A DNA stretch of 64,000 nucleotides from Candidatus Dojkabacteria bacterium (lineage in GTDB: Bacteria; Patescibacteriota; Dojkabacteria; SC72). Position numbers and translations under genes: made by a program. A model generated the notes under the pieces. That model was given only the letters and a program-made list of their open reading frames with translations, did not search any database and was not told where the DNA came from. The stretch's first letter is position 1, and every line of letters starts with the position of its first letter. The DNA lies in assembly GCA_034005145.1 (NCBI GenBank), contig JAVEVH010000001.1, positions 1,899-65,898 on the forward strand, given 5' to 3'. Of this stretch, positions 31,771 to 64,000 are shown piece by piece.

Positions 31771-32467
31771 AAGTAAGGTAAAAGTAAAAAATATTTCAAT
31801 CCTTTTCCTCTTTTTTTGTTTAGGATATATCTCTAATATCCTTGTACTTAATTGGGGTGAAATAGATATATATCAATATATATCTAAATTAAGAGAGGAG
31901 AGTGTAATAACTGAGATAGAGGAAAATATTGTTGTAGAGAAAGAAATATGTGAACCAGAGGTAGTAATCGAAGAGGAGATAGATACATGCCCAATACTAG
32001 TTGATATTAGTGGGGCTGTTAAAACTCCGGGTGTTTACTGTTTTGAGAAAGGATCTAGTGTTGTAGATGCTGTTAAAAAGGCAAAAGGTTTTACATTAGA
32101 TGCTGGTTTTAAATATATATCAATGAGAATTAATCTAGCTACAGTAATGATAGATAACTCGAAGATATATATACCCTTTGAAATAGATTACGATTGTAAA
32201 CTCTTAACATTTAATCTCCCTAAAGATGTAATTGATATTACAATACCTGATATTGAGGATGATGAGGAAGATACTCAGCAACCCTCTGAGTGTATTAGTA
32301 TTAATACTGCTACACAACAAGAGTTAGAAACTCTAAGTGGTGTAGGGCCCTCTACAGCATTAAAGATAGTGGGGGGTAGGCCATATACTGTTTTAGAGGA
32401 TTTGTTGAATGTAAGCGGTATAGGGGATGCTACATTCAATGCTTTTAAGGATAGTATATGTCTTTAA
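31766..32467 (+). CDS. comEA: Competence protein ComEA-like (TM anchor, SLBB domain, tandem HhH DNA-binding motif)
   Basis: C-terminal ISINTATQQELETLSGVGPSTALKIV...LLNVSGIGDATF (HhH x2). Central SLBB-like VDISGAVKTPGVY. Confidence 0.75.
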   Translation: MGSKVKVKNISILFLFFCLGYISNILVLNWGEIDIYQYISKLREESVITEIEENIVVEKEICEPEVVIEEEIDTCPILVDISGAVKTPGVYCFEKGSSVVDAVKKAKGFTLDAGFKYISMRINLATVMIDNSKIYIPFEIDYDCKLLTFNLPKDVIDITIPDIEDDEEDTQQPSECISINTATQQELETLSGVGPSTALKIVGGRPYTVLEDLLNVSGIGDATFNAFKDSICL

Positions 32468-33975
32468 AAACATTAAAGGAGAGATATAGGGGGATATTAC
32501 TGTTTTTCATTGATTACAAAGCATTACTTTACTGTTTTACAATTTTAAGCACACTAATCTCGGGTAGTAATATCCTAGAAAGGATCATCTTTGAGGGAGA
32601 GATTTTAAGTTTAGGATTACTTTTCGATTTTTTACTACCCTCCTTAATTCTTCTTTTCTTCTTCACTGTTTCATACAAGCATTTTTGTGATGTGTATCTT
32701 TTTGGTACATTGCTAAAAGTCTTTCTAATATCATATCTTTTAACACTACCGTTACTCTCCCTTAAATTTGAGAATATTACTTCCCAGCTACAAAATGTCC
32801 AAAGTTTCACTGGCAAAAATGTGTGGATATCTGGGGTAGTGACCTCCCAAGAGAAGGAGAACACATTCCTGTTTCACTCTGATAGGGGAGGGTTGGGTAA
32901 TTCTTTAATACGTTTTAAACAGTATCCTGTTTTACATACAGGTCAAAGGTGTAAATTAGGTGTAAAAGTAGTGGAACCTAAGAGTTTTGAAGAGTTTGAT
33001 TACAAAAGATATCTCTTTAGAAAAGGAATATATTCAATATTAGAGGTAAATGAATATGAATGTAGTAATGGAGGTAATATGTTTTTAGAAATGAGATATG
33101 TATTAGAGAGAGTAGTAGAAAAGTCTCTTTCAGAACCAGAGGCTTCTCTTTTGATAGGGATAATGTTTGGTAGTAAGAGAGTATTTAGATCTGATTTTAA
33201 TACTGCATTAAATAGCTCTGGTGTATCTCATGTCATCGCAGCATCAGGATATAACGTAGCATTGGTTGGAGAGGGGGTAGAGAAGCTAACAAAGGGTATT
33301 AGGGGTAAGGGTGTAGTACTTTTTAAAATACTTTGTATATGGGGGTTCTCAGTATTCTCAGGCCTATCATCATCCTTAGTAAGAGCATCTAGTATGAGTA
33401 CTCTTTCTCTCTTTGCTCTTTTACTTGGTAGAGAGAGTAACAAGGGTGCTACATTAATCCTTTGTGCTACTGTATTAATATCTCTTAACCCATTCTTAAT
33501 ACATGATTTAGGTTTTCTTTTCTCTTTTGCATCAGTAACTGGTTTAATATTTCTTCCTAAATGTTTTGAAAATATTAAATCTAAATTCCTAAAAGAGAGT
33601 GTATTAACAACATTAACATGTATACTATTCACACTCCCAATCTCTGTAATATTCTTTGGTAAGGTTTCGGTGATATCGTTGGTGAGCAATATAATAGTGG
33701 TCCCTATAATTAACAGTACGATATTTTGGGGATTAGGGGTTACATTGATAAATATGTTGGTATCAATACCCATATTGTATCTAATACCATATATACAATT
33801 AAAAATATTTAAATATTTTGTATCAATATCCTCTAATATACAAATGGTAGAGATAGGGGTGAATAAGTATGTATTTGGAGTAGGCATATATTTACTTCTT
33901 TTCCTTTTCTGTTTATACAAATATCCTGTATCATCTAAAAACCACTATTTAAAAATATCTAAAAGGTATGAGTAA
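32458..33975 (+). CDS. comEC: ComEC/Rec2 DNA-uptake channel, membrane (competence) domain only
   Basis: Polytopic membrane protein with a DUF4131-like N-terminus and the ComEC competence domain (LLIGIMFGSKR...GVSHVIAASGYNVALV). Lacks the MBL domain, which is encoded by the next ORF. Confidence 0.75.
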   Translation: MSLKTLKERYRGILLFFIDYKALLYCFTILSTLISGSNILERIIFEGEILSLGLLFDFLLPSLILLFFFTVSYKHFCDVYLFGTLLKVFLISYLLTLPLLSLKFENITSQLQNVQSFTGKNVWISGVVTSQEKENTFLFHSDRGGLGNSLIRFKQYPVLHTGQRCKLGVKVVEPKSFEEFDYKRYLFRKGIYSILEVNEYECSNGGNMFLEMRYVLERVVEKSLSEPEASLLIGIMFGSKRVFRSDFNTALNSSGVSHVIAASGYNVALVGEGVEKLTKGIRGKGVVLFKILCIWGFSVFSGLSSSLVRASSMSTLSLFALLLGRESNKGATLILCATVLISLNPFLIHDLGFLFSFASVTGLIFLPKCFENIKSKFLKESVLTTLTCILFTLPISVIFFGKVSVISLVSNIIVVPIINSTIFWGLGVTLINMLVSIPILYLIPYIQLKIFKYFVSISSNIQMVEIGVNKYVFGVGIYLLLFLFCLYKYPVSSKNHYLKISKRYE

Positions 33976-42387: not shown

Positions 42388-43758
42388 ATGGCTGTTCAGT
42401 TTAATTACGTTGCCCCTAAGGGGTGGAGTCCTCCTAATGCAGATAAAGACTATTTAATCACATACCTAGATATTGAGTTAGCAGATGGGATATCAGATGA
42501 TAACTTTGAAGATGCTGCAGGTAGTTGTGCAGCTGAGAGTTCTACTGGTACATGGACTAAGGTAGATGAGGGAAAACACTCTGGTACTAAGTTAGCGGAT
42601 AAACTTAAGGCAGTAGCGTATGACTTAGATCCTAAGACAAAGACTTTTAAGATTGCATACAAGAAAGAGATCTTTGAAGAGGGTAATATGGCCGGATTGT
42701 TTGCTGGTATTGCGGGTAATATCGATAGTATGAAGATGTTAAAGGCATTTAGATTAATCGATGTCCGATTCCCTGAGAGTCTTGTTAAGAGCTTTCCTGG
42801 TCCTCAATTTGGTATTACTGGTGTAAGAGATTTTATGCAAATAGAAAGAGGTCCTTTAATGTGTACTGTACCTAAGCCTAAGGTAGGTAGAACTGCTAAA
42901 GAGCAGGCATATTTAGCTAAAATCCTCTTTACTGCAGCTAAGGGTGAGTTCCAGGGTATTAAGGATGATGAGAATCTAACTAGTTTGTATTTTAATAAGT
43001 TTGAAGATAGGTGTAAGTTAGTACATGAAGTACAAAGAGATATTGAGAAGAAGAGTGGTAAGAAGAAGTTGTATCTATGTAATACTACACACTCAGACTT
43101 AGACATTATGCTTGATAGGGCAGACCTAATCAAAAAGCATGGTGGTAGATGGATGATGATTGATGTTGTTACTACTGGGTTTACTGCAGTTCAAACAGTA
43201 AGAAAGCATAACCCTGGTTTAGCTATACATGCACATAGGGCTATGCACGGTCTTTTAGATAGAGAGTCAGGCCCTGGAGTACATGATAAAGGGGAGATAT
43301 TAGACTTCTCTATGTCTATGGTCGTAATTGCTAAAATCATGCGTTTACTAGGCGTAGATTCACTACATGGTGGAGCTCCTAAGACAAAGATGGAGAATTA
43401 CAATGAACCTAAATTAATACAGGAAGCCTTACAGGCAGATATTACACCAGAGAGTGATATGACACTTGGTCAAAATTGGTTTGGTATGAAAGGAGTTTGG
43501 CATACAGCTTCAGGTGGTTTACACTCTGGAACAATAGGGGACTCTATCCTTAAATTGGGTGAAGATATAATACTGCAAGCAGGTGGAGGAGTATTGGGTC
43601 ATCCATGGGGTATTGAAGCTGGTGTAGAAGCAATGGTTGAAGCTAGAGATATCGCTATGGAAAGGAAAGATTTAAAGCAATGGATATTAGATAATCCACA
43701 GAGTGCTCTTGCTAAGGCAGCCTCGCATTGGGGATTTGATCCTAGAATTGTATATTAG
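42388..43758 (+). CDS. rbcL: RuBisCO large-subunit, form II/III (archaeal/CPR) type
   Basis: Catalytic motifs: KPK.G (VPKPKVGRTAKE), carbamylated-Lys motif GIKDDENL, HAHRAMHG, and C-terminal SGGLHSGT...LQAGGGVLGHPWG. 456 aa, no small-subunit gene nearby. Confidence 0.85.
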   Translation: MAVQFNYVAPKGWSPPNADKDYLITYLDIELADGISDDNFEDAAGSCAAESSTGTWTKVDEGKHSGTKLADKLKAVAYDLDPKTKTFKIAYKKEIFEEGNMAGLFAGIAGNIDSMKMLKAFRLIDVRFPESLVKSFPGPQFGITGVRDFMQIERGPLMCTVPKPKVGRTAKEQAYLAKILFTAAKGEFQGIKDDENLTSLYFNKFEDRCKLVHEVQRDIEKKSGKKKLYLCNTTHSDLDIMLDRADLIKKHGGRWMMIDVVTTGFTAVQTVRKHNPGLAIHAHRAMHGLLDRESGPGVHDKGEILDFSMSMVVIAKIMRLLGVDSLHGGAPKTKMENYNEPKLIQEALQADITPESDMTLGQNWFGMKGVWHTASGGLHSGTIGDSILKLGEDIILQAGGGVLGHPWGIEAGVEAMVEARDIAMERKDLKQWILDNPQSALAKAASHWGFDPRIVY

Positions 43759-51714: not shown

Positions 51715-52731
51715 ATGTTAGGAAAGAAAATAGGTATCGATTTAGGTACTGCCAATTCAATAGTTTTTGTACAAGGAGAAGGTATTTCTTTTGTAGAACC
51801 TACTGTTGTTGCAATAGATGTAAATACATACAAAGTAATATCTGTTGGATCAGAGGCTAAGAAAATGATTGGTAAGACTCCAGACAATATAATTGCTAAA
51901 AGACCTCTTAAAAATGGTGTAATAGCGGATAGTAGAGTAACAGAGGCTTTACTCAAATATTTTTTAAATAAAGCATTAGGTAAATCTAGATTTTTAAAAC
52001 CAGATGTAGTAATTAGTGTACCTGCTGGTATAACTACGGTAGAACAAAGAGCTGTAGTAAAGGCAGCTACTAATGCTGGTGCTAGGCAAATCACTATGTT
52101 ACCAGAGCCGTTACTAGCAGCCTTAGGGGCAGGTCTCCCTATAGAAACCTCTTCAGGTAATATGATTGTTAACTTAGGTGGTGGTACTGCAGAGATAGCT
52201 GTAATGTCTTTGGATGGGATAGTGGAGTATGATTCTTTAAGGATAGCTGGTGACGCTATTAACGAAGCCATTATCAACTATATGAAAAAGAAAAAGGGTG
52301 TATTAATTGGAGAACAGACTGCAGAAAATATTAAGATTAGGATAGGGTCTGCAATAGAAACTAAAAATCCTAAGAGTATGGAAGTGAGAGGTAGAGATTT
52401 TGGAGCAGGGTTACCTAAAGCTATTACTGTAGATTCTAACGATATAGCTGCTGCGGTCAAGAGGCCTTTACTAAGTATAATTAATAGTATAAAAGGAGTA
52501 CTTGAGAGAACTCCTCCTGAGCTTTCTGCAGATATAATGGATAGGGGAATAGCTATGAGTGGTGGTACATCTAAATTAAGGAATTTAGATAAGCTTTTTG
52601 CAAAGGCAATAGGGGTACCTGCGTACGTTGCTGATGAACCTATGTATTGTGTTGTAAAGGGTACTGGTATTGCATTAGAATTAATGGCAACTGGTGAGCG
52701 TACGTTTACATTTAATAAATCAATTACATAA
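51715..52731 (+). CDS. mreB: Actin-like rod-shape protein MreB
   Basis: KIGIDLGTANS phosphate-1 motif and actin/Hsp70 fold motifs throughout. 338 aa. TGGTATAAT -10 ends 6 nt before the ATG. Confidence 0.85.
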   Translation: MLGKKIGIDLGTANSIVFVQGEGISFVEPTVVAIDVNTYKVISVGSEAKKMIGKTPDNIIAKRPLKNGVIADSRVTEALLKYFLNKALGKSRFLKPDVVISVPAGITTVEQRAVVKAATNAGARQITMLPEPLLAALGAGLPIETSSGNMIVNLGGGTAEIAVMSLDGIVEYDSLRIAGDAINEAIINYMKKKKGVLIGEQTAENIKIRIGSAIETKNPKSMEVRGRDFGAGLPKAITVDSNDIAAAVKRPLLSIINSIKGVLERTPPELSADIMDRGIAMSGGTSKLRNLDKLFAKAIGVPAYVADEPMYCVVKGTGIALELMATGERTFTFNKSIT

Positions 52732-52733
52732 AT

Positions 52734-53897
52734 ATGGGTATTTTTACTAAATCAGGAAAGTCATCTATGAAACTAAGTGAGGTTACTACCTTACTTTCTA
52801 AACTTAAGATACCTACTAGTTTAGTATTTACACCAATAAATCTTACTCAAGAGAAAGAGAAATTCTTAAACTCTGATACATATGAGCCTCAGTTTGAGTA
52901 CAAGATTGTTAAAAATAGGAATAGTGAGATATTAAAAGAGCTTTCATCAGTAAGAGAGATTACTGATGTAGATCCAAGAATCTCCTCCTTCTACCTCCAA
53001 TTAATAGAGTCTAAAAAAGATACAAACGATTTAATGCATGCTGTTGGTAATAATGAGTTAGTAACAGAGATATCCTTAAAGAAATATGGTAAACCATCTG
53101 CATTACTTTTTAGAAATGCTTCTAGAGTACTAAGGGGTGTAGTAGATGGATACAATCTTACTAAATATCCTAAGTTAGAGAAGGGGGATATTTTAGGATA
53201 TGAAGAGATAGTAGAGGTATTCAATACTGTCTTTGAGGAGCTTAATTTAGATGGATGGAGTGTAGCTAAGTCACAAAATATTGCTAAAAATGGTGTTAAG
53301 GTGGGTATTAAAAGAAAACAGATATTAGTAGACGCAGGTATAGAGAGGAGTAAATTCAAATTAAAGAAAACATTAGTACATGAGGTAGGTACACATGTAC
53401 TTAGGTCTGTTAATGGAGTTAAGAGTGGGTTCGAGGCCCTTAGTAAGGCTAACCTTCCAGAGTATTTAGATATTGAAGAGGGTTTAGCTACTTGGAATGA
53501 ATCTAATATGGATCTTTTAACATTGGGATGGTTAAAAGAGAAAGCTGCTTTAACATGGGCTATATATATTGGAGAGAAGCTTACCTTTAGGCAGCTGTAT
53601 AATAGTGTGTTAGGGGTATTGCCTCCTAAATCAGCATTTAGTGTTACATATAGGGTTAAGAGAGGACTAGGGGATACTAGTTATCCAGGTATATACTGTA
53701 AAGATATAGTGTACTTCAGGGGTTTTAGAAAGGTAAAAAAACAGTTAGAGAAAGACAAATCTATATATGAGAAACTATATGCTGGTAAAATAGATTTTAA
53801 GCAGTGTGAATGGGTAGATGAGGGATTAATTCCTAAAGCAGGATTAGTTCCTTCTAAAGAATTATGGAAGGGTATATTTAAAAAGGCTGGTATCTAA
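52734..53897 (+). CDS. DUF1704 / QEGLA-motif family putative zinc (tyrosine-type) carboxypeptidase
   Basis: HExxH (LVHEVGTHV) followed about 30 aa later by IEEGLA (QEGLA-like). Starts 2 nt after the mreB stop. Confidence 0.55.
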   Translation: MGIFTKSGKSSMKLSEVTTLLSKLKIPTSLVFTPINLTQEKEKFLNSDTYEPQFEYKIVKNRNSEILKELSSVREITDVDPRISSFYLQLIESKKDTNDLMHAVGNNELVTEISLKKYGKPSALLFRNASRVLRGVVDGYNLTKYPKLEKGDILGYEEIVEVFNTVFEELNLDGWSVAKSQNIAKNGVKVGIKRKQILVDAGIERSKFKLKKTLVHEVGTHVLRSVNGVKSGFEALSKANLPEYLDIEEGLATWNESNMDLLTLGWLKEKAALTWAIYIGEKLTFRQLYNSVLGVLPPKSAFSVTYRVKRGLGDTSYPGIYCKDIVYFRGFRKVKKQLEKDKSIYEKLYAGKIDFKQCEWVDEGLIPKAGLVPSKELWKGIFKKAGI

Positions 53898-54847
53898 TTA
53901 TCCTTAAATGCAGTAATAATTTCTTGAGCTATATTAATAGGATTTTCTGTTTTATTCTCGTATGCCTTAAATCCAGGATGTAAACTTATTTCCTGTAGTA
54001 ATGGTTTGTCTTTCATCATCATAATATCTACTGCTAAAAAGTCTGCCTCAAGGATTCGTGAAACATTTTGGGCCAAGGCTTTTAATTTTCCCTCAGGATT
54101 ATTGTAAGCATGGTATTCCCCCTTGCTCACTGTCATGAAACTATCCGTTGCTTCTCGTCTCCATCCTGCTATTACTTTGCCTAACTTAATAAATATACGT
54201 ATATCCTGGGCACTATCCGAGAACTCCTGTATAAACATCCTAGAGTGATCTAAATCTTTTAAATACTCCTGCCTATATCCATCTTCATTATCAATTTTAA
54301 ATACATTCTTTTTTACTTTCTCTTCACCATTTATATTTTCTAATCTATTAGCTCCAGAGTAATCTTTAATTATTAATGGGAATGCATTTAATATATCTCT
54401 GTGTGCAGAGTAATTACCATCTGTTCTAAAGTATGAGTCAAAGTAGGGGATATTATGTTTGGAGCAAAATAGAGCTAGCTCTATTTTATTGTAATATGGT
54501 AATTTTTTAATAGCTTGAGAATTTTGTACCAATATTTTGTTATCTGGATTGTCTGAGTTATGTTGATCAATGTAATCTACTATATATTTTTTAAATTGGT
54601 ACTGTATTGGATTATGTAAATCATGTCCTCTAAGTAGTATATGACTATATTTTCTAATATCCATACCTTTCGCTTTTATCACTGTTTCACCATTTATGAA
54701 CTCAAATTCGAGCTCATCAAAGTATGCTAAGGAGTGGGGTATATCTTTTTTGTCCAGTTCCTCAGTTAGTCGTAAATTGGTAGTGGCAATATTGTTCTCA
54801 TTTTCTGTTTTTACCCTCTGTTTTTTATCGATTATTAAGTAATTCAT
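53894..54847 (-). CDS. RimK-like ATP-grasp amino-acid ligase
   Basis: C-terminal half aligns to RimK: DIRIFIKLGKVIAGWRRE...VDIMMMKDKPLLQEISLHPGF vs DIRCLVVGDEVVAAIERR...[21 protein letters not shown]. Confidence 0.6.
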   Translation of the reverse strand: MNYLIIDKKQRVKTENENNIATTNLRLTEELDKKDIPHSLAYFDELEFEFINGETVIKAKGMDIRKYSHILLRGHDLHNPIQYQFKKYIVDYIDQHNSDNPDNKILVQNSQAIKKLPYYNKIELALFCSKHNIPYFDSYFRTDGNYSAHRDILNAFPLIIKDYSGANRLENINGEEKVKKNVFKIDNEDGYRQEYLKDLDHSRMFIQEFSDSAQDIRIFIKLGKVIAGWRREATDSFMTVSKGEYHAYNNPEGKLKALAQNVSRILEADFLAVDIMMMKDKPLLQEISLHPGFKAYENKTENPINIAQEIITAFKDN

Positions 54848-54851
54848 ATGT

Positions 54852-56540
54852 TTATATTTTCCTTATATTATCTATTAATTTCATCCTTTTATACCTCTTT
54901 AATATTTTCATATACTCTTTGTTTGTACTCATATCTTTTGTAATGAATACGGTATTAATATGATCAAAGCCCAGTCCGTACTCCTTTACATCATCCCAAT
55001 CTCTATGATGTATTACTATTACATCAAGTAGAGCATTACATTTTATAGATTCAAAGGATCTCCATCTTTGGGATTGTTCATTCATTAACATACCGTTAAT
55101 GTAATATCTTTCCTGTACGATTTCTCCTACAGTATCTTCCTTTTTAATCATCCATTTCCTTCTTAGTAGAGTAGGTAGGTCATCTTTACTTTGTCCAATT
55201 ACTACGAATTTCTTACATACATTTTCTTTAAGTAAAGCCTTTATATATGTTTCTGCTACATAGCTTCTCTGTTTACCAAGTATTGGATAGAAGTTAAGGT
55301 ATGATTCTGGCATTGTATTTACTTCTAGGATAGCGCCATTCTCTTTGGTTAATGGTTTAGAGAGATCTAGACACATTACATCTACACCTAAGGTAAAGGC
55401 GTGTAATGAGTTAGCTAGGCTCTCTACAATGGTTTTAATTTCCTTACTAACGGAATCTGTAAAGTCTTCTGTTATACCTCCCTGACTCATACTAGCGATC
55501 TTTCTTACCTGTATCTTTTCTTCCTTGCTAGGCACAGAGCTAAGTGTAAGCCCTTGTTCTTTAATGTAATCTTTAAGGGGTTCATCTATGTCTATGGGCT
55601 TTAATATATGGGCTGGGTTTGTAGTATCTCTTCTTGGATCTTTATTTTCTTTCTCTATTAATTCTTTAATAGTTAATTTACCATCACCGATTATAAAGGC
55701 AGGTATTCTTTTAGTAGCTATTTCTAACTTACCGTTAATAACTAGAAGCCTGTAATCTTCTCCCTGGACCTGTTCCTGTATCATTACTTTTGTTTGCCAT
55801 GTAGCTTTACCCTCTCCTGCCTCTTTAGCAAATTTAAATGCTTTTTTAGCCTCCTCTAATGTATTAATACCTACTACAACACCATGTCCACCTGTTAAAC
55901 CAGTAGGTTTAATTACGACTGGTTTCTCATACTCTGAAAATACTTCTTCTAAATGATTTAGGCTATCTATAACTTCCCACTTAGGAAGAGGAAGATTTAA
56001 TCTCTTAATCATTGTATTCGTAGACCATTTATCTCTTTGAAGATTTTGGGATATATATGCATCCTTAGAGGAAGCTATTGAACCTGTAATCTGAGAGCCC
56101 TTACCACATCCTAGAAGGTAGTATCTATTAAATATCCTCCTATATCCCTGTTTAAGATCTTTAATCATTAAATCGTCTAATACAGCTGGTGTAGTTTCAA
56201 TATTTTGATTATGTGCAGACTCTAGTACTGGGATTGTAGACATTGATTTAATTCTTCTTCCTATTACTTCTTCTATTACATACTGTTGTGCTTTTTCTAA
56301 TGTAATTTTACTTTTAGAAAGATTTACAAAGCTTTCTGCAGACTCTCTCCAAAGAAATGGTAATTTAGACCTTATAGTGAGGAGAGTGGGGGATATTGAG
56401 TATTCTTTAATAAAAAGAGGGTGGAAAGTAACAATTTTGTCTAGTATGGTAGTAATATCTCCAATATTATCTCCTTCTAAGGATATCTTTACTGTTGTAA
56501 ACTGTGATTCTAGATTTAGACCCTGTACTGTTTGTACCAT
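54852..56540 (-). CDS. Cyanophycin-synthetase-N-terminal-like ATP-grasp ligase (no Mur-ligase domain), with unique N- and C-terminal extensions
   Basis: YRLLVINGKLEIATKRIPAFIIGDGKLTIKELIEKENKDPRR ... SQGGI ... GVDVMCLDLSKPL...ILEVNTMP closely parallels the CphA ATP-grasp core. Confidence 0.65.
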   Translation of the reverse strand: MVQTVQGLNLESQFTTVKISLEGDNIGDITTILDKIVTFHPLFIKEYSISPTLLTIRSKLPFLWRESAESFVNLSKSKITLEKAQQYVIEEVIGRRIKSMSTIPVLESAHNQNIETTPAVLDDLMIKDLKQGYRRIFNRYYLLGCGKGSQITGSIASSKDAYISQNLQRDKWSTNTMIKRLNLPLPKWEVIDSLNHLEEVFSEYEKPVVIKPTGLTGGHGVVVGINTLEEAKKAFKFAKEAGEGKATWQTKVMIQEQVQGEDYRLLVINGKLEIATKRIPAFIIGDGKLTIKELIEKENKDPRRDTTNPAHILKPIDIDEPLKDYIKEQGLTLSSVPSKEEKIQVRKIASMSQGGITEDFTDSVSKEIKTIVESLANSLHAFTLGVDVMCLDLSKPLTKENGAILEVNTMPESYLNFYPILGKQRSYVAETYIKALLKENVCKKFVVIGQSKDDLPTLLRRKWMIKKEDTVGEIVQERYYINGMLMNEQSQRWRSFESIKCNALLDVIVIHHRDWDDVKEYGLGFDHINTVFITKDMSTNKEYMKILKRYKRMKLIDNIRKI

Positions 56541-56546
56541 GTTTTT

Positions 56547-57527
56547 TTATATTATCTTAGATATATACTCTATTATTGGAATTGCTACTTTAACTGTTTC
56601 TCCCTCATCTACTTTGTAGTGTACTCTTAATCCTGGATTGTAATTTATTTCATTTATTGCACACTTAGCAGGTTTAGTAATATCAGGAGTAATTATATCT
56701 ACGCCTCCAAACTGTGTCCCTATTGCTTTAACTGCTTTAACAGCAATATCTTTGTAGTATTGGTGTGTCTGTTTAGAACACTCCTGTGTAGTTCCTCCTG
56801 TAGAAAGATTACAGTTATATCTTAATATTACCTCTTCATTTACTTTGGGTATATAGCTAAGAGAGATATTTAAATTTTGGAGTCTCTGTTTAACCTCATT
56901 ATCTATTGTAATTGGTTTTAATATTTCTTTCTTTCTATCAATATTTTTATTCTCAATTAACTTCTTTATACTATCTTTACCATTACCTATTACATATGCT
57001 GATTTTCTTCTCACAATACCTATGACTTTATCTCCTAGAACTAAGAGCCTGTAGTTTTCTCCCTCTATGAATTCTTCTCCTATTACTTTGTAATCACTCT
57101 TAGCTTTAGATTCCTTTAATGCATATTTATATGCCTTTAGTACCTGTCCCTTATCTTTGGGTAATAGTGTTACTCCCTTTCCTCCTAACTGTTGAGAGGG
57201 TTTTATTACGATGTTTGTATACTGTTTAAAGAACTCTAATGCATCCTGTTTGTTTAATAGTGGTGTTTGCTTTGGTACAGGTATATCAAAATCAGAAAGT
57301 ACCATATTAGTAAGATTCTTTCTCTTAGCTATGGTTGTACTTGTTGTATTGGTTAATGGTGTTGCAGTATTAATTATGTACCAATGCTTACCATTACTTT
57401 CAAATTTAGCCATTAAAGATGGTACTACAATATTATATTTAATATTTAATATATCTGCTGCCTCAATGTAGTAGGCTAGATGTACATTACCAGCTATTTT
57501 TAAGTACTCTTCATATGTTTTAGACAT
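56547..57527 (-). CDS. Cyanophycin-synthetase-N-terminal-like ATP-grasp ligase (stand-alone, 326 aa)
   Basis: NYRLLVLGDKVIGIVRRKSAYVIGNGKDSIKKLIE ... NLSTGGT ... GVDIITPDITKP...INEINYNPG matches the CphA ATP-grasp signature blocks. Confidence 0.65.
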   Translation of the reverse strand: MSKTYEEYLKIAGNVHLAYYIEAADILNIKYNIVVPSLMAKFESNGKHWYIINTATPLTNTTSTTIAKRKNLTNMVLSDFDIPVPKQTPLLNKQDALEFFKQYTNIVIKPSQQLGGKGVTLLPKDKGQVLKAYKYALKESKAKSDYKVIGEEFIEGENYRLLVLGDKVIGIVRRKSAYVIGNGKDSIKKLIENKNIDRKKEILKPITIDNEVKQRLQNLNISLSYIPKVNEEVILRYNCNLSTGGTTQECSKQTHQYYKDIAVKAVKAIGTQFGGVDIITPDITKPAKCAINEINYNPGLRVHYKVDEGETVKVAIPIIEYISKII

Positions 57528-57546
57528 ATATTGATATATTTAAATA

Positions 57547-59022
57547 TTAAAAAGTATTACTTGTATCTATTAGATATCCTGTTAGATCGCTCCTACCAAT
57601 TGTAACTTGGTAAGGAGTATCAGAGTATTGAGTAGATACAAACTCAGTTATCTTTACTTTATCTAATATCTTTATTGGTATCTCAAATACTGGTCTAACG
57701 GTTATATCTCCATCTTCTACTATCTTTGCTAACCTCTTTATATCCTTACTTTCAGATATTTTTTCTTCATACTTATCTATGTACTCTTGTGCCTGTTTAA
57801 AACTTTCGAACTTCTTGGGTACCTCTAACTTAGTAAACTCTTTATGAGCATTAATATATCCAATACGGTTGGCTAGCTTAGAATCTATTCTAGATGTAAG
57901 TACACCTGTATCCATGAATGCTTTTACTAACTCTTTTTTAATTTTTTGAGACTTACCAATCTTACTTATATCTGTACTCTTGTCATACAGAGATATTTTC
58001 TCTGTAATATTGAGTACCTGTCTACCGCTAATAGCTTCTATACTTTCTTCAATTTCACCACCAAAGAGGTTTTTAGAGACTCTCATACCGTGTCTAATAC
58101 CCTTAATCTTTAGATCTTTTACTTTCTCTAATCTCCATCTTAAACCTGCTTGATTAGCTACTTGAATACCTAGTCCTGGTCTAGCATTTATTTCAAATAC
58201 AACAGGTCCTTTATCTATATCTAATGCAATATCTACACCTATATATCCTAAACCACTTACTTTCTGACACTTCAAAGCTATTTCTAATATCTTATCCCAG
58301 TTAGGAATTTGAATACCACTTAATGGTTTATTATCTTTTAAATCAACAGTAGAGTCTATTAATTCGTATGTATCACTTAAAAAGATATTCTTTTTCATTT
58401 GCATAGAGTAGGTAGTAATACCTGTACCAATATCTATACCGGTACATATGGCTCCTGAGTGTAAATTGGCAGTACCATTACTTCTTCTTGTTGGAAGTCT
58501 TAGCATAGCCATAACGGGGACTGAATTAAAACATATTATTCTAATATCAGGTACCCCTCTATATGAATACTGTTTAAGTAGAGGGTCTGTTTTAATCCTT
58601 TCTTCAATGATAGCGGTGTCTGTTTTAGATCCCATTGAGAATCTACCCTCTAGTATATTTTCTATATGCAATATTATATCCCTTTGGTTCATAGTTGTAC
58701 CGTTAGGTCTAATCCATTCTAATTCTCCCTTCTTCTTACCGTAAAAAACGATAATACCGTTACCACCTGTACCTTGGTTAGGTTTGATTACGAAACTTTT
58801 AGGAAGGCTCTCCCAATCTAGAAACTGTAACTGTTTCTTACTCCTTATTAATTTGTATACCTCTGGAGTTTGTATTAACTCCTTTCTAAGAACCCTTTTA
58901 GTTAATATCTTGTTATCAGCAATAGCTTTGGATGAGGGAGGGTTATAAGGTCTTACATACTCTTGGTTTCTCCTGTTTAGACCTAATACCTCCTTATTTA
59001 GTTTTAATATACTACTTGTCAT
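57547..59022 (-). CDS. Alpha-L-glutamate-ligase-related (RimK-related) ATP-grasp protein with ~190-aa C-terminal extension
   Basis: N-terminal signature LGLNRRNQEYVRPYNPP...DNKILTKRVL typical of this RimK-related family. ATP-grasp core follows, then a C-terminal region of unknown fold. Confidence 0.6.
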   Translation of the reverse strand: MTSSILKLNKEVLGLNRRNQEYVRPYNPPSSKAIADNKILTKRVLRKELIQTPEVYKLIRSKKQLQFLDWESLPKSFVIKPNQGTGGNGIIVFYGKKKGELEWIRPNGTTMNQRDIILHIENILEGRFSMGSKTDTAIIEERIKTDPLLKQYSYRGVPDIRIICFNSVPVMAMLRLPTRRSNGTANLHSGAICTGIDIGTGITTYSMQMKKNIFLSDTYELIDSTVDLKDNKPLSGIQIPNWDKILEIALKCQKVSGLGYIGVDIALDIDKGPVVFEINARPGLGIQVANQAGLRWRLEKVKDLKIKGIRHGMRVSKNLFGGEIEESIEAISGRQVLNITEKISLYDKSTDISKIGKSQKIKKELVKAFMDTGVLTSRIDSKLANRIGYINAHKEFTKLEVPKKFESFKQAQEYIDKYEEKISESKDIKRLAKIVEDGDITVRPVFEIPIKILDKVKITEFVSTQYSDTPYQVTIGRSDLTGYLIDTSNTF

Positions 59023-59689
59023 CGTCTCTACCAGTAAATCTAAATCTAAAGTAATCCTTTATCCTCAAACCTTTAAACATACCAATTAAGATATTTAAGA
59101 TTGCAAGTAGAGGTATTAACCATAGATTGTTTAGGAAGTAGTCAGAGATTATCTCTCTAGTTATTACAAACCATCCAAATACTGCTACTAAGATTGTAGT
59201 AAGTAGAGTCATTACAGATGATTGTAGGGACTTTTTGACATACTGCTTTGTAAAAAAGTCAGAGAGAGCCGCTATTGATATGAAAGCGAGTGGGGGGATA
59301 TTAGACATATTCTCTAAACCTAATCCTAAGGTATCTATTAATACAAAGAAAAGAACTAATACCATTGAGAGGACAATATAGTTGGTAGCAATACGAGTAA
59401 TGTAATGTATTCTTACCTTTTTAAGTACAGAGTAGGAGAGTAAAGAGGTTAATATTACAATCAATGTTACTGCTAAACCGTATTTTAATCCTGTATATGA
59501 GTATGCAATTGAAAGAAGTACTGGAGCATATATACCGTATGTCTTACCTCCTACAAGATATCTAGAGATACTTACAATGGTTGCTACAATACACATAGCT
59601 ATGAGTATTTCTAATACCATTTGTGATATACCATGATCAATTATCCACTCTGTTAACTTGGATGTTTCAAACATATATATATTGATCAA
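59012..59689 (-). CDS. Polytopic membrane protein (6-7 TM), first gene of the ATP-grasp operon
   Basis: Hydrophobic helices throughout. Stop overlaps the next gene's start by 11 nt. The start is more likely the ATG at 59674 than the TTG at 59689. Confidence 0.5.
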   Translation of the reverse strand: MINIYMFETSKLTEWIIDHGISQMVLEILIAMCIVATIVSISRYLVGGKTYGIYAPVLLSIAYSYTGLKYGLAVTLIVILTSLLSYSVLKKVRIHYITRIATNYIVLSMVLVLFFVLIDTLGLGLENMSNIPPLAFISIAALSDFFTKQYVKKSLQSSVMTLLTTILVAVFGWFVITREIISDYFLNNLWLIPLLAILNILIGMFKGLRIKDYFRFRFTGRDDDK

Positions 59690-59740
59690 AAATTAGAATA
59701 TTTAACCCTCCATTATACTTTGTATATGTATATTTTGTCG

Positions 59741-59771
59741 ATGAAAAGAAAAGAGAGCCTTTCGGCTCTCT
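59741..59771 (-). terminator. Rho-independent terminator after rplL (minus strand)
   Basis: Hairpin agagagcc-tttc-ggctctct preceded on the + strand by an A-run (U-run on the minus-strand transcript). Confidence 0.6.
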
Positions 59772-59796
59772 TTAAGATACTTTTTAAAGATTTAGA

Positions 59797-60204
59797 TTAC
59801 TCTAATTCTACTTTTGCACCAGCTTCCTCAAATTTTGCTTTGAAAGCCTCTGCATCTTCTTTCTTTACTCCCTCTTTTACTGTCTGAGGAGCTGCTTCTA
59901 CAAGATCCTTAGCCTCTTTAAGACCAAGTTCTGTAATCTCTCTTACTACCTTGATTACACCAATCTTGTTACTACCTGCCTCCTTTAAAACAATATTGAA
60001 GACTGATTTCTCTACTACTTCTTCAGCTGCTGCTGCTGGAGCTGCTGCTACTGCCATAGGGGCTGCTGCACTTACTCCAAACTTGTCTTCCATTACCTTA
60101 ACAAGATCAGCTAGTTCTAAAACGGTCATTTTCTCAACCATTTCGATAACTTTTTGAGCATTGTCAGATAACTTTGGAAGCTCTTTGTTTACTTCGTCTG
60201 CCAT
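59797..60204 (-). CDS. rplL: 50S ribosomal protein L7/L12
   Basis: N-terminal dimerisation helix, Ala/Pro-rich hinge ([17 protein letters not shown]), conserved C-terminal domain. 135 aa. Confidence 0.9.
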
Positions 60205-60238
60205 TGTATGTATATATTAAATAATTTAATTATTAATG

Positions 60239-60757
60239 TTATTTCTTTTCAGAAATTCCTTTTAATACCATTGTTAAACCTCTTACGTTCCCAGTTACTG
60301 CGTTCATAAAGCCTGTTAGAGGTGCATTCATAGTACCAACAAGTCTAGATAGTAATACTTCCTTAGATGGTATGTCTGCTAATTGCATTACTCGCTCTGC
60401 TGTTAAGAATTCTCCTTCATATACTCCACTTCTTGGTTCTAAGAGTTCTGCATCTTTTTGAATCTTTTTTACTAATTTTGCTGGTTCTGTTGGATCTTGT
60501 TCAAATGCTATTAATGCTGTTGGTCCATCAAAATCTTGTGTTTGTAATGGTTGTTTTGTATCTTGTAATGCTACTTTAAATATACTGTTTTTAAGTACAG
60601 TAAAATTAGCACCTACATCCTTTAATTGGATTTTAAGTGTAGTTACAGTAGCTGTATCTATCTTATCTGAGTTAACTAAAAGGTATCCTGATTTACTTTC
60701 TATTAAATCTTTATACTTTTTAAGCAACTCTTCTTTCTGAGTACGACTTTTAGACAT
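60239..60757 (-). CDS. rplJ: 50S ribosomal protein L10
   Basis: L10 family N-terminus MSKSRTQKEELLKKYKDLIESKSGYLLV... 172 aa, immediately upstream of rplL. Confidence 0.9.
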   Translation of the reverse strand: MSKSRTQKEELLKKYKDLIESKSGYLLVNSDKIDTATVTTLKIQLKDVGANFTVLKNSIFKVALQDTKQPLQTQDFDGPTALIAFEQDPTEPAKLVKKIQKDAELLEPRSGVYEGEFLTAERVMQLADIPSKEVLLSRLVGTMNAPLTGFMNAVTGNVRGLTMVLKGISEKK

Positions 60758-60884
60758 CTCTATGTTTATTTAATTAATATTGAATTACTATTTACCTCGT
60801 ATGGATTTATTTATATACCATACTTCTTCGGTTAAATACTAAAGGTGATTATATACAAAGTAAGAGTAGGGGTCAAGGGCTTTA

Positions 60885-60945
60885 CAGAAGGGAACTATTT
60901 ATATACTCATACGAGATATATTTTGAACTACATAGTTCCCTTCTG
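60885..60945 (-). promoter_or_regulatory. Perfect 14-bp inverted repeat (cagaagggaactat ... atagttcccttctg, 33-nt spacer) in the rplJ 5' leader: candidate L10(L12)4 autoregulatory leader structure
   Basis: Located between the inserted gene (ends 60975) and the rplJ start (60757). No U-run on the transcribed strand, so not an intrinsic terminator. Confidence 0.35.
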
Positions 60946-60974
60946 TTGTTTAAGCCTACCGAGTTTTTAAAATT

Positions 60975-61355
60975 TTACCAATTGGGGTCTGCTATAAGTT
61001 TTGGGGGGAGTTTACCAATAAAAATTTTAATACATTCCTGACAATCAGGCCTCCCTTCTTTCTGGGGCCTTGTTTTAACAATCTTTGTTAAAACAATTGT
61101 CTTATCTTTCAATTCTCTGACGTGGAAGCGAAAACCCTCTTTGGTTTCTATTATTGATTTTTGTGGCATTCCCTTACCTTCGATAACGTCTGAAATTTGA
61201 AAGGATCGACCTTTATGGTGCAAATGTTCGTCAGAAATGTAAACGCAATTGTTTTTTTGAGACCTACAATTGTAATCAGAAGCAATTACCTCTGGTGGTT
61301 CTTGCTCTTCTTTACAATCCTTGCAATATTGCTTAAACTCGCAAAAGTCACACAT
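60975..61355 (-). CDS. Cys-rich hypothetical protein (126 aa; CxxC...CxxC at both termini), inserted in the rplKAJL cluster
   Basis: Four CxxC-type pairs (CDFCEF, CKDC, CQEC...). Codon third positions visibly more G/C-rich than neighbouring genes. Confidence 0.45.
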   Translation of the reverse strand: MCDFCEFKQYCKDCKEEQEPPEVIASDYNCRSQKNNCVYISDEHLHHKGRSFQISDVIEGKGMPQKSIIETKEGFRFHVRELKDKTIVLTKIVKTRPQKEGRPDCQECIKIFIGKLPPKLIADPNW

Positions 61356-61466
61356 TTTGTTCTCCCTTTTTAACTACTGACACTTTTTTAATGAACAACG
61401 ATGGTCTCGGTAGACCTATTAACAAGCCACATTATATGCCTATAGGGTTAAAAATATCAAGTGTAA

Positions 61467-62786
61467 TTATATTCCCCAATCATCAAGATGTTTATATCTA
61501 TTAGATATCCTGTAAGTATCTTTCCCATTATGTGTAACTTTTTGTATGACCTCTGGCTTCTCTTTCCATATATTTCGCAACCTCTCTTGGTTGTATGTAA
61601 TAAGATTATTGTATATCTCTACAAGTTTTCTTAAGTTATTGGCAAAGACTGAGTCTTTTTCAGTTAATTCATACATATCCGCACGAAATTCAAAAGTATG
61701 TATGTCACTAAGATAGGGGGGCTCTCGTAGTGCTTGCGGATTCTCTTTAAGAATAGATGCAAATTTTGTAAGTTCATGTAAATCATCTAGGTAATCTTTT
61801 TTATGTTCGGCTTTTACATAAGGAGAACCGAGTAGAGTGTTTTCTAATAGTTTTGATTCTCCTAAATCACCCTTATTGGCGGTTTTTTCTGAAATAAAGG
61901 TCTCTCTCATACCCACTGCACTTATTTTTTCTTGTAGTTCTGGAACTATTGTTGGGTGATATTTAACGTCTTTTGAGGGCTCTATTGAAGCTTTTACTAC
62001 TTTCCAAAAAATATCTTGATCTTTGAAGTTACCAGGTAAAATTCTGAAATGCATATTTAAATACTCTGCGAGATCAATATTTAACATCTCTGCTCTTGCC
62101 TTTATATCTGGAAGTAAATCTCTGAGATCATATTCATTAAGGAAAATAATACCTTTCTCTAGTGGGATACTTACTCCTTCCTCATTGTATGCTGCCATAG
62201 CACTACCACTAGAAGCAATATCATTAGAGATTCTAGTACCTTCTAGGCCTGATACAGGTATTGCAAAAAATGCTCCAAATATGTAACTACCTCCACCTTC
62301 TCCATCTGTTTCTCTACCAGTTCTTGCTTCAAAACATACTCTATCTACATCAAAATAGGCTTCTCCATATCGAATCAGTTCTTGGCGAGTAAGCTCTCTT
62401 TTGCTTGGTGAGACTACTGCTCCCTGTTTAATTATTTTTCTTAGTACATCTTTATCCCAAGATATACCAAGTTCTCTTTTGTCAGAAGCTGGTAGGTTAC
62501 TATCGAAACCATGGATAAGGATGGATCCTTCTAATGGATTTCTAAGCCGTTCTGCATGTACCTTTTCTAATAGATCAGAGTAGGTGGGGTAATTATTTCT
62601 GAAATCGGAGGAATTTTCATAGTATCTTTTATATCTGTCTTTATCGGGAATATGGTAATGTTCCAGTTCTAACTCTTTAACCTTGGTAAATAGTTCTTCT
62701 CTAATCTTTTCTTCCTCTGGAGTGTATAGGTTCTCTGTTGTAATAGTTTCCATATTATTTATTCTATACATATTTAGTATAAACAA
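61467..62786 (-). CDS. Hypothetical protein (439 aa), inserted between rplA and rplJ
   Basis: Long ORF, no recognised motif, slightly elevated GC. Confidence 0.45.
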   Translation of the reverse strand: MFILNMYRINNMETITTENLYTPEEEKIREELFTKVKELELEHYHIPDKDRYKRYYENSSDFRNNYPTYSDLLEKVHAERLRNPLEGSILIHGFDSNLPASDKRELGISWDKDVLRKIIKQGAVVSPSKRELTRQELIRYGEAYFDVDRVCFEARTGRETDGEGGGSYIFGAFFAIPVSGLEGTRISNDIASSGSAMAAYNEEGVSIPLEKGIIFLNEYDLRDLLPDIKARAEMLNIDLAEYLNMHFRILPGNFKDQDIFWKVVKASIEPSKDVKYHPTIVPELQEKISAVGMRETFISEKTANKGDLGESKLLENTLLGSPYVKAEHKKDYLDDLHELTKFASILKENPQALREPPYLSDIHTFEFRADMYELTEKDSVFANNLRKLVEIYNNLITYNQERLRNIWKEKPEVIQKVTHNGKDTYRISNRYKHLDDWGI

Positions 62787-62831
62787 AAAGACCTCTTTTC
62801 AGAGGTCTTAATTATTGCTATTTATGATTAT

Positions 62832-63521
62832 TTACTCAGCTTTTTTATAATCTATCTTAAAGCTAGGACCCATTGTAGGAGCTATATGCATTCTCTCTAC
62901 AACCTGGTTATATGGTTTGCCTAATACATCTTCTACTGCTGAAATAGCTACTGAGATATTCTCTAATAGTTTTTCATCATCTAAATCTAATCTACCTGCT
63001 TTAATATGTATTACACCAGAGGTATCACAAGCAAATGTTTGTTTACCTTTCTTGTATTCCTCTATTGCAGATTTAAAATCATCAGTTACTGTTCCATTCT
63101 TAGGATTAGGCATTAATCCCTTAGGACCTAACTCTTTACCAAGTACAGCTATCTTAGCCATTACAGAAGGCATAGCTATAGCTACATCAAATGTAATTTT
63201 GTTTGCCTTAATATCTTTTATTAATGTATCTAAACCTACAAAGTCTGCACCTGCTTCCTTTGCTTCTTTCTCTTTCTCTGGTGTTGTAAATACTGCTATA
63301 GTAACACTCTTTACATCTGTAGAGTGGGGGAGTGATACTGCACCCTTAATAGATTTAGGATCTTTATCCTTAGATACTTTAATATCAAAATGTAACTCTA
63401 AACTACCTACAAAAGAGCTATATGAGGTCTTCTTAGCCTCTTTAATACCATCTTGTATAGAGTATGTCTTACTCCTATCTAAATCTTTTACTATCTTGTT
63501 ATATTTCTTTCCTCTTTTCAT
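62832..63521 (-). CDS. rplA: 50S ribosomal protein L1
   Basis: L1 family throughout (MKRGKKYNK...GAVSLPHSTDVKSVTIAVF...GLMPNPKNGTVT). 229 aa. Confidence 0.9.
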   Translation of the reverse strand: MKRGKKYNKIVKDLDRSKTYSIQDGIKEAKKTSYSSFVGSLELHFDIKVSKDKDPKSIKGAVSLPHSTDVKSVTIAVFTTPEKEKEAKEAGADFVGLDTLIKDIKANKITFDVAIAMPSVMAKIAVLGKELGPKGLMPNPKNGTVTDDFKSAIEEYKKGKQTFACDTSGVIHIKAGRLDLDDEKLLENISVAISAVEDVLGKPYNQVVERMHIAPTMGPSFKIDYKKAE

Positions 63522-63541
63522 TCTGTATTATTTTTTAAACA

Positions 63542-63967
63542 TTATATTTCAGTCTCTATACCCATCTGTCTTGCTGTACCAGCAATTATCTTTGCTGCTT
63601 GATCAGGATCTGATGTGTTTAGGTCTGGCATCTTAATTTCTACAATCTTTTTAATCTGCTCTTTAGAAAGTTTTCCTACTTTATCTAAGTTAGGTCTAGC
63701 AGAACCCTTCTTAATCTTTAACTCTCTCCTAATTAATTCTGATGTTGGAGGAGTCTTAGTTATGAAGTCAAAAGATCTATCATCATATATTGTAATGATT
63801 ACTGGTGTTAATATGCCTCCTGCTTCTCTAGTTTTTTCGTTAAACTGAGCACAGAACTCCTGTGTAGAGATACCGTATGGTGCTAATGTAGGACCAATTG
63901 GAGGTGCAGGTGTTGCTTGTCCTGCTGGTATTGTTATCTTAATTATTGCTTTTACTGGTTTTGCCAT
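63542..63967 (-). CDS. rplK: 50S ribosomal protein L11
   Basis: L11 N-terminal domain PAGQATPAPPIGPTLAPYGI and C-terminal RNA-binding domain. 141 aa. Confidence 0.9.
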   Translation of the reverse strand: MAKPVKAIIKITIPAGQATPAPPIGPTLAPYGISTQEFCAQFNEKTREAGGILTPVIITIYDDRSFDFITKTPPTSELIRRELKIKKGSARPNLDKVGKLSKEQIKKIVEIKMPDLNTSDPDQAAKIIAGTARQMGIETEI

Positions 63968-64000
63968 ATTAATATCTCAAATATTTTAAAGTTTACTTAC

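Follow-up and report, generated by a model that had tools for sequence, protein, structure and literature searches.

The interval between the ribosomal protein genes rplA and rplJ is probably an accessory-gene hotspot in the Candidatus Dojkabacteria (candidate division WS6, Patescibacteria) genome studied here. In the 64-kb stretch of DNA that we analysed (the window; 35% GC), this interval runs from the terminator of rplKA to the promoter and leader of rplJ and holds two independent modules. An earlier note on this DNA had described two minus-strand open reading frames (ORFs) in the interval, at 61467–62786 and 60975–61355, co-directional with the ribosomal genes, and this description is correct; we call them ORF-A and ORF-B. 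The elements of the interval are:

62832–63521, minus strand: rplA (ribosomal protein L1), a 229-aa ORF whose orthologues are assigned PF00687; upstream boundary of the spacer
62788–62809, minus strand: intrinsic terminator of rplK-rplA from a terminator scan, with a 9-bp stem, loop GAAA and tail TTTTTGTTT
62776–62782, minus strand: TTATACT, left copy of a 7-bp direct repeat that borders the ORF-A segment on its upstream side, from alignments of loci with and without ORF-A
61467–62753, minus strand: ORF-A, 428 aa from the ATG at 62753, in an open frame that extends to 62786
61460–61466, minus strand: right copy of the repeat, TTACACT in the window and TTATACT in relatives, abutting the ORF-A stop codon and overlapping the first T of the ORF-B -35 element
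61431–61460, minus strand: ORF-B promoter, TTGATA-18-TATAAT (11/12 match), conserved in all loci that carry ORF-B
61403–61430, minus strand: ORF-B 5ʹ leader, GTGGCTTGTTAATAGGTCTACCGAGACC, with the hairpin GGTCT-ACCG-AGACC at 61403–61416; 100% identical in the window and L001–L006
60975–61355, minus strand: ORF-B, encoding a 126-aa basic protein (isoelectric point, pI, 8.1)
60884–60946, minus strand: long hairpin 3ʹ of ORF-B, a self-complementary match with 15-bp arms (ACAGAAGGGAACTAT and ATAGTTCCCTTCTGT), just upstream of the rplJ -35 element
60848–60876, minus strand: rplJ promoter, TTGACC-17-TATAAT (11/12 match), kept across the clade whatever lies upstream
60758–60847, minus strand: rplJ 5ʹ leader of about 90 nt with two helices, similar to an L10 leader, from RNAalifold on 16 Dojkabacteria loci
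60239–60757, minus strand: rplJ (L10), an ORF; downstream boundary of the spacer

The gap from rplA to rplJ is 2075 bp in the window, as it is in the related locus L001. This is unusually large in comparison with the 170–270 bp of more distant Dojkabacteria and the 36–400 bp of many other sampled bacteria. We collected rplA loci from GTDB species representatives, mapped their neighbours by tblastn and extracted the ORFs in the gap. The nearest rplA loci in this search belong to metagenome-assembled genomes (MAGs) of Dojkabacteria, and the clade that we compared consists of 17 loci with L1 proteins 63–97% identical. The content of the spacer is as follows:

Window, L001, L002, L003/L097–L099 and L004: ORF-A and an ORF-B-type gene
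L005, L006 and L090–L095: ORF-B only (gap of 759 bp in L005; about 155 bp from rplA to ORF-B in L091–L094)
L009: an unrelated 188-aa ORF and an ORF-B-type gene (gap of 1309 bp)
L013: a 98-aa ORF-B-type gene and an 87-aa Cys-rich ORF
L007, L008 and L010–L012: a Cys-rich mini-ORF of 50–65 aa only (gap of about 550 bp)
L016: an NAD-dependent epimerase
L014, L017 and L020: other orphan ORFs
L015 and L021: empty (gap of 137–173 bp)

If more distant Dojkabacteria are included, empty spacers measure 137–270 bp. The flanks are fixed, the content differs among close relatives, and the phylogenies of insert and flank are incongruent, as in a core-flanked hotspot. The earlier view of the two genes as accessory, and as lying outside the ancestral layout of rplKA followed by rplJL, is borne out: ORF-A is lacking from L005, L006 and L090–L095, and distant members of the clade carry other genes or none at this site. 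Orthologues at the same position, which would point to an ancestral arrangement if all close relatives had them, are present in some and absent from others.

ORF-B is a self-contained, single-gene unit in which a block of coding sequence, from codon 2 to about codon 117, is swapped within conserved flanks. The DNA of the window and L001 is 92% identical over 9 kb downstream and 86% identical across ORF-A and the ORF-B leader, with no blastn alignment at 61352–61006, the swapped block. The L10 proteins are 98% identical, and over the swapped block the ORF-B proteins are 39% identical, with a nonsynonymous substitution rate (dN) of 0.57 and a saturated synonymous rate (dS). The last ~30 nt of the ORF-B coding sequence (...ADPNW) and the 3ʹ hairpin are conserved. 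In the comparison with L091, L10 is 95% identical, ORF-B is 85% identical, and the ORF-B dS of 0.27 is as in the flanks. Hence, the window is nearer to L001 than to L091 in L10 (98% against 95%) but nearer to L091 in ORF-B (85% against 39%). ORF-B allele classes are 25–45% identical to one another in genomes with L10 proteins 95–99% identical. All four combinations of ORF-A presence or absence with two ORF-B allele types are seen, and contrasting haplotypes share the groundwater metagenomes JGI 3300025009 and 3300025121. In L006, codon 70 of the ORF-B copy (2117–2497) is changed in frame from GAA to the stop TAA, which makes it a pseudogene unless the sequence is in error; six other contigs carry this allele intact (P0007).

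Could ORF-B be the variable target of a diversity-generating retroelement? Such elements are common in Patescibacteria, and the confinement of hypervariability to the ORF-B coding block, between conserved ends, is reminiscent of them. However, the divergence is gene-wide and involves indels and all substitution types, rather than a region of ~100 bp with adenine-directed changes. Furthermore, the 64-kb window contains no template repeat and no second copy or paralogue of ORF-B, in whole or in part, or of ORF-A, and there is no reverse transcriptase among the large window ORFs that we checked. We consider this explanation almost certainly wrong.

ORF-A is dispensable: some strains that are nearly identical in other respects lack it, and their junctions are identical. 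The segment concerned is 1316 bp long, has ORF-A as its sole gene and lies between the two copies of TTATACT. These copies coincide exactly with the indel boundaries, which are identical among loci. In loci that lack ORF-A, the tail of the rplA terminator is joined directly to the ORF-B promoter (...TTTTTATTTATACT followed by TGATATTTTT...). No terminal inverted repeats were seen around the segment, and the 7-bp direct repeat could be explained equally well as deletion microhomology. The earlier note had noticed no integrase, transposase or flanking direct repeats here. We likewise saw no integrase or transposase in the window, Pfam assigned no transposase, integrase or recombinase domain to ORF-A or ORF-B, and the neighbours of the spacer are ribosomal, ATP-grasp and other housekeeping genes; the direct repeat TTATACT/TTACACT, by contrast, does bracket ORF-A.

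The change in ORF-A state is very recent, since L001, which has ORF-A, and L005, which lacks it, are nearly identical: dS is 0–0.009 over rplJ (0.009), rplL and ORF-B, the L12 proteins are identical and the ORF-B proteins are 98% identical. The gene itself is not a recent arrival. Relative to L001, ORF-A has a dS of 0.38 and its neighbours 0.18–0.42, which indicates that it is old at this site, and its divergence follows that of L1 across the sub-clade; its dN/dS is 0.33, against 0.03–0.10 for the neighbours. Its presence here thus goes back to the ancestor that the sub-clade shares, and it has co-diverged with the genome under relaxed purifying selection. The stem of the rplA terminator is invariant in six loci and the loop varies, being GAAA, GTTA or GTAA where ORF-A is present and TCAC or TAAC where it is absent. 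This consistent difference suggests recombination, with the ORF-A-less state spreading as an allele, and not repeated deletion.

We propose that ORF-B alleles, and the presence or absence of ORF-A, are shuffled by homologous recombination anchored in conserved flanks. Three anchors would serve: the rplA 3ʹ end and terminator, the promoter and leader of ORF-B, and the ORF-B 3ʹ end together with the rplJ promoter. Homologous recombination across the flanks is the simplest reading of the ORF-B swaps, and the presence of ComEC in the window is consistent with DNA uptake for such recombination.

The explanation offered in the earlier note was a horizontally acquired two-gene cassette, with a toxin/defence role or encoding a ribosome-associated factor, that rides on a highly expressed operon. 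We weighed it as a recent, foreign cassette, consisting of a toxin/antitoxin pair or a defence gene and its partner, inserted in the ribosomal operon and expressed from it. ORF-A and ORF-B do run in the direction of the ribosomal genes, they are absent from more distant Dojkabacteria, and an ORF-B-type gene follows ORF-A in every ORF-A locus that extends far enough. However, ORF-B occurs without ORF-A in at least eight contigs (L005, L006 and L090–L095) and behind a different gene in L009. This independent assortment, with all four combinations represented, largely refutes a single cassette. Nor do the genes ride on the ribosomal operon. A strong intrinsic terminator lies 3ʹ of rplA, ORF-B and rplJ each have a promoter with an 11/12 match, and in genomes that lack ORF-A the ORF-B promoter directly follows the rplA terminator.

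Deviant composition had been put forward as a sign of foreign origin. With a GC content at third codon positions (GC3) of 0.331, ORF-B indeed ranks highest of the 40 window genes, but other whole genes reach 0.30–0.32. Among 126-codon blocks of the other genes (mean 0.238, standard deviation 0.052), 4.3% reach 0.331; ORF-B has a z-score of ~1.8, and ORF-A (GC3 0.233, GC 0.35) is typical of the window. The argument from composition is therefore weak. The strings quoted as G/C-ending codons (ctgacgtgg and others) are plus-strand text, the reverse complement of the coding strand, and thus are not codons. Foreign origin is also at odds with the ORF-A dS and with the distribution of the two families, which are confined to the lineage or extremely rare: we found no close homologues of ORF-A or ORF-B in unrelated taxa or mobile elements, all of them being at the same locus in sister Dojkabacteria. 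Searches of PADLOC, Pfam, PHROGs and NCBIfam gave no evidence of a toxin, antitoxin or defence identity, and no relatives were found in viral contigs. We therefore regard a recent cassette as quite improbable, and continue to favour two modules that are exchanged separately.

Are ORF-A and ORF-B genuine genes? Patterns of substitution indicate that they are. ORF-A has a dN/dS of 0.33, 0.22 and 0.22 relative to its orthologues in L001, L003 and L002 (dS 0.38–1.13), and it has 21 remote homologues. ORF-B has a dN/dS of 0.32 relative to its nearest allele, that of L091, and belongs to a family of nine clusters among 5.8 billion proteins. The rarity of homologues in that collection might suggest instead that both are chance frames or decaying pseudogenes in an expanded spacer, as might the stop codon in the L006 copy of ORF-B. 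Upstream of ORF-A, moreover, the best promoter match is 9/12 and no Shine-Dalgarno sequence was found. However, dN/dS values well below 1 for both ORFs refute this explanation, the frames stay open in lineages separated by a dS of as much as 1.1, the remote ORF-A homologues share invariant residues, and ORF-B has a consensus promoter and is preceded by the Shine-Dalgarno sequence GGGAG. We give the pseudogene explanation practically no credence. It is plausible that ORF-A is expressed by read-through of the rplA terminator.

The length of ORF-A was given as 439 aa in the earlier note. That reading begins at a TTG; homologues are called from the ATG at 62753, giving 428 aa in P0001–P0004, or from five codons further upstream (433 aa in P0005), and in L003 a 1-nt indel interrupts the putative upstream extension. 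Close homologues form five clusters with 63–100% identity, and the four that we looked up all lie directly after rplA. The 21 remote homologues, detected at E<1e-10 when 1.84 billion representative proteins were searched with a HMMER profile, are mostly 22–30% identical to the window protein and mostly 300–410 aa long. The family shares a core of ~240 residues in which R119, R128 and D135 are invariant (alignment A7, 26 sequences) and H81, G82, N86, G111, P116, R138, F141, Y157, P166 and G193 are at least 90% conserved. Long helices and a terminal beta-hairpin come after this core. With a pI of 5.4, the protein is acidic; we take it to be cytoplasmic, and neither signal nor membrane features are predicted from its sequence.

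Neither ORF-A nor the 26 family members gave anything above noise against Pfam, NCBIfam, PADLOC and PHROGs. PDB profiles yielded no significant match, but only weak matches of the C-terminal region to coiled coils or designed helical bundles and one spurious match to respiratory syncytial virus F. An AlphaFold model built from five sequences had a mean predicted local distance difference test (pLDDT) score of 47, too poor for a description of the core or a structural search. The string 'ILIHGF.GN' raised the idea of an ADP-ribosyltransferase-like or alpha/beta-hydrolase-like protein, which we rejected; alignment A7 has no conserved catalytic Glu and no GxSxG. No locus of the family was found in viral contigs, and a metagenome scan added one close locus. 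We sought the genomic context of five remote homologues, mostly on contigs shorter than 2 kb. The only one with usable context, P0022 (L089, a 10-kb contig), lies amid PcsB/M23, FtsEX and prfB, a chromosomal housekeeping neighbourhood that is not ribosomal.

The ORF-B protein is identical to the NCBI entry 'hypothetical protein RBS01_00235 [Candidatus Dojkabacteria bacterium]', and the two named clusters of its family are both from Ca. Dojkabacteria/WS6. Its eight Cys residues make up three CxxC pairs (2–5, 11–14 and 105–108) and C30-x6-C37, rather than the four CxxC pairs previously counted. Across the family, C2, C5, Q9, Y10, C11, D13 and C14 are invariant; hence, of the Cys residues, only the four N-terminal ones are, in the motif C-x2-C-x5-C-x2-C. 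The C-terminal CxxC is followed by ...ADPNW. The N-terminal motif may bind Zn or an Fe-S cluster. ORF-B has no match among Pfam, NCBIfam, PADLOC, PHROGs and PDB sequence profiles. An AlphaFold 2 model (pLDDT 65 overall, 76–86 in the core) predicts a six-strand beta core with no significant structural match. The suggestion that one of the two proteins has a zinc-ribbon, HNH or nucleotidyltransferase fold thus finds no counterpart in sequence profiles or in the ORF-B model.

The signals around ORF-B are far more conserved than the protein. A stretch of 65 bp that includes its promoter and leader is invariant in seven loci, and the leader does not change where the encoded proteins are only 25–40% identical (window and L001–L006). 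The leader is also found in L009, and a variant in L013 (GGTCTGCTGAGACC) keeps the stem. It has no match in Rfam. Its constraint may reflect a role of the RNA in stability or regulation, or use of the DNA as a recombination anchor. The hairpin 3ʹ of ORF-B, whose arms stay paired through compensatory changes in L004 and L009, is probably a terminator or stabiliser of the ORF-B transcript.

Downstream of these variable genes, the regulatory unit of rplJ is intact, and both its promoter and its leader are conserved in every locus listed above. Expression of rplJL from L10-leader transcripts is known to be autoregulated by the L10-L12 complex (Rfam L10_leader). The rplJ leader of Dojkabacteria resembles the L10 leader in that it is structured and lies directly upstream of rplJ, and six of its nine base pairs have compensatory double changes among the 16 loci; this covariation, together with the conserved promoter, points to an L10-type unit. 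It differs in that it scores against no Rfam model: a scan of 59600–64000 in E-value mode gave no credible family, L10_leader included. The rplJ promoter comes only after ORF-A, ORF-B and the 3ʹ hairpin, so that both ORFs are outside the rplJL transcript and its leader.

Alternatively, ORF-B and the Cys-rich mini-ORFs might encode a factor particular to this lineage that associates with the ribosome or regulates rplJL, such as a zinc protein that binds the L10/L12 stalk or the rplJ leader and is kept beside rplJ for co-regulation. In most of the clade, a small protein with four N-terminal Cys residues is encoded just upstream of the rplJ promoter, of the ORF-B type in the window, L001–L006, L009 and L013 and of the mini type in L007, L008 and L010–L013. 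ORF-B is basic, and the invariant leader hairpin could be an autoregulatory site. Such a role is possible but disfavoured by extreme variability and patchy presence. ORF-B proteins that are 25–45% identical where L10 and L12 are 95–99% identical are hard to square with binding to a conserved ribosomal surface; L015 and L021 lack the gene, as do all of the more distant Dojkabacteria, despite the same rplJL layout; and the L006 copy has a nonsense codon. Furthermore, the likeness of the mini-ORFs to ORF-B consists of Cys spacing, with no homology demonstrated beyond that. We consider a ribosomal role unlikely. The mini-ORFs (50–87 aa) are found in the same slot in L007 (1444–1635), L008 (6839–6991), L011 (6824–7009), L012 (6857–7054) and L013 (7305–7568). 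Each has its own TATAAT promoter and an N-terminus like CxxC-x4-6-CxxC, and they have an acidic tail that ends in ...EGLxPI, or in ...CEEEE in L008.

What might the spacer genes do? The rapid turnover of ORF-B alleles suggests that the protein takes part in a conflict-type interaction specific to each strain, the other party being a phage, a host or partner cell, or a rival strain, and the conserved His, Arg, Arg, Asp, Arg and Tyr residues of ORF-A would suit an enzyme. We tentatively view the ORF-B product as a small cytoplasmic protein of conflict type that binds Zn or an Fe-S cluster, and ORF-A as a dispensable, enzyme-like protein probably expressed by read-through, with neither belonging to the ribosomal regulatory units. 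A more speculative version, which we regard as a long shot, is that the four-Cys proteins beside rplJ (ORF-B and the mini-ORFs) are a new class of fast-evolving metal-binding factors that act on the L10/L12 stalk or on translation factors in conflict with phages or between host and epibiont, that the leader hairpin couples their expression to ribosome status, and that ORF-A is an auxiliary enzyme with a new fold.

Several points weigh against a hotspot of recombining modules with these functions. No match in PADLOC, PHROGs, Pfam, NCBIfam or PDB sequences assigns a function to ORF-A or ORF-B, and the ORF-B model gives none. The conflict-type role of ORF-B would follow solely from its pattern of variation. 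Saturation of dS prevents the measurement of dN/dS between ORF-B allele classes, and selection inside a class is purifying. Recombination is deduced from incongruence and from sharp breaks of identity in MAG contigs, part of which may be mimicked by strain-chimeric assembly, although several independent assemblies give the same haplotypes. The patchy presence of ORF-A may go back to an early insertion that some strains later lost, or to a polymorphism kept since the ancestor. Lastly, a second variable gap of 1.6–2.9 kb lies between rplL and the downstream 7TM gene in L014, L015, L018 and L019. Both boundaries of the rplJL operon thus accept insertions in this lineage, which suggests that the hotspot may not be special to the rplA-rplJ site.

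The remaining ribosomal features of the region are:

63542–63967, minus strand: rplK, an ORF
59797–60204, minus strand: rplL, an ORF
59750–59773, minus strand: terminator after rplL

In the window (51715–60204), L001 and all Dojkabacteria loci compared, the genes after rplL are not rpoBC; they encode a 7TM_transglut membrane protein and four ATP-grasp proteins (ATPgrasp_ST, RimK-like). Beyond these lie a divergent MATCAP-family peptidase and MreB. The order L12, 7TM, ATP-grasp is kept down to 24–40% identity, and the L12 protein of the window ends in ...KVELE. A RimK/TTL-like ligase and a MATCAP-like carboxypeptidase beside L7/L12 suggest a system for modification of C-terminal tails. Elsewhere in the window, a single ORF of 5357 aa (12088–28161), with unusually high GC at second codon positions (0.51), probably encodes a giant surface protein, and is followed by a gene for a 994-aa protein with a Laminin_G_3/concanavalin-like domain. 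Other housekeeping genes include those for LeuRS, ArgRS, ProRS, a ClpB-like protein and UvrA. The window also encodes a homologue of the RuBisCO large subunit, which we take to be of form II/III, and the ComEC competence channel (42388–43758 and 32458–33975).

The literature on Dojkabacteria ribosomal proteins and on insertions between rplA and rplJ yielded nothing about this spacer. The genes reveal no new mechanism or defence system; rather, they define two unannotated families, ORF-A (~25 clusters, with the H/R/R/D/R/Y set) and ORF-B (nine clusters, with an N-terminal CxxCx5CxxC). The locus indicates that the boundary of two highly conserved operons can be a recombination-driven accessory slot even in a reduced Patescibacteria genome, and it combines replacement of orphan-gene alleles with a clean single-gene indel between near-identical, co-existing strains. 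It should be a useful marker for population genomics, and it offers a view of how reduced genomes gain and shed orphan genes.

How do these genes compare with known systems? Like type II toxin-antitoxin and defence cassettes, ORF-A and ORF-B are adjacent, co-directional, small to medium in size and patchily distributed. Unlike such cassettes, they are not co-inherited, have separate promoters and a gap of 111 bp between them, and match none of the families. The four invariant N-terminal Cys residues of ORF-B, in the motif C-x2-C-x5-C-x2-C, recall Cys4 zinc-ribbon, zinc-knuckle or Fe-S loop proteins. The spacing C-x2-C-x5-C is familiar from WhiB-like or EndoIII-type Fe-S motifs, which is useful as a lead only. 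ORF-B matches none of the Cys4 zinc or Fe-S families by sequence or structure, and its four Cys residues fall within 13 residues, in contrast to classical two-knuckle ribbons.

The closest parallel is with the core-flanked accessory-gene hotspots, or 'islets', that are known from the population genomics of many bacteria and are exchanged by homologous recombination across their flanks. As in islets, the rplA and rplJ flanks are fixed and no integrase is present; close strains differ in content, with other genes, other alleles or nothing; identity falls off abruptly at conserved anchors; and alternative haplotypes co-exist in one habitat. The slot differs from typical islets in being tiny (0.15–2 kb) and in carrying almost exclusively orphan genes. 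The phenomenon of a core-flanked hotspot with orphan cargo is therefore already known; what is notable here is its location in a reduced Patescibacteria genome, inside rplKA-rplJL, a cluster that is otherwise very conserved, and a promoter and leader that stay invariant around a coding sequence that is swapped.

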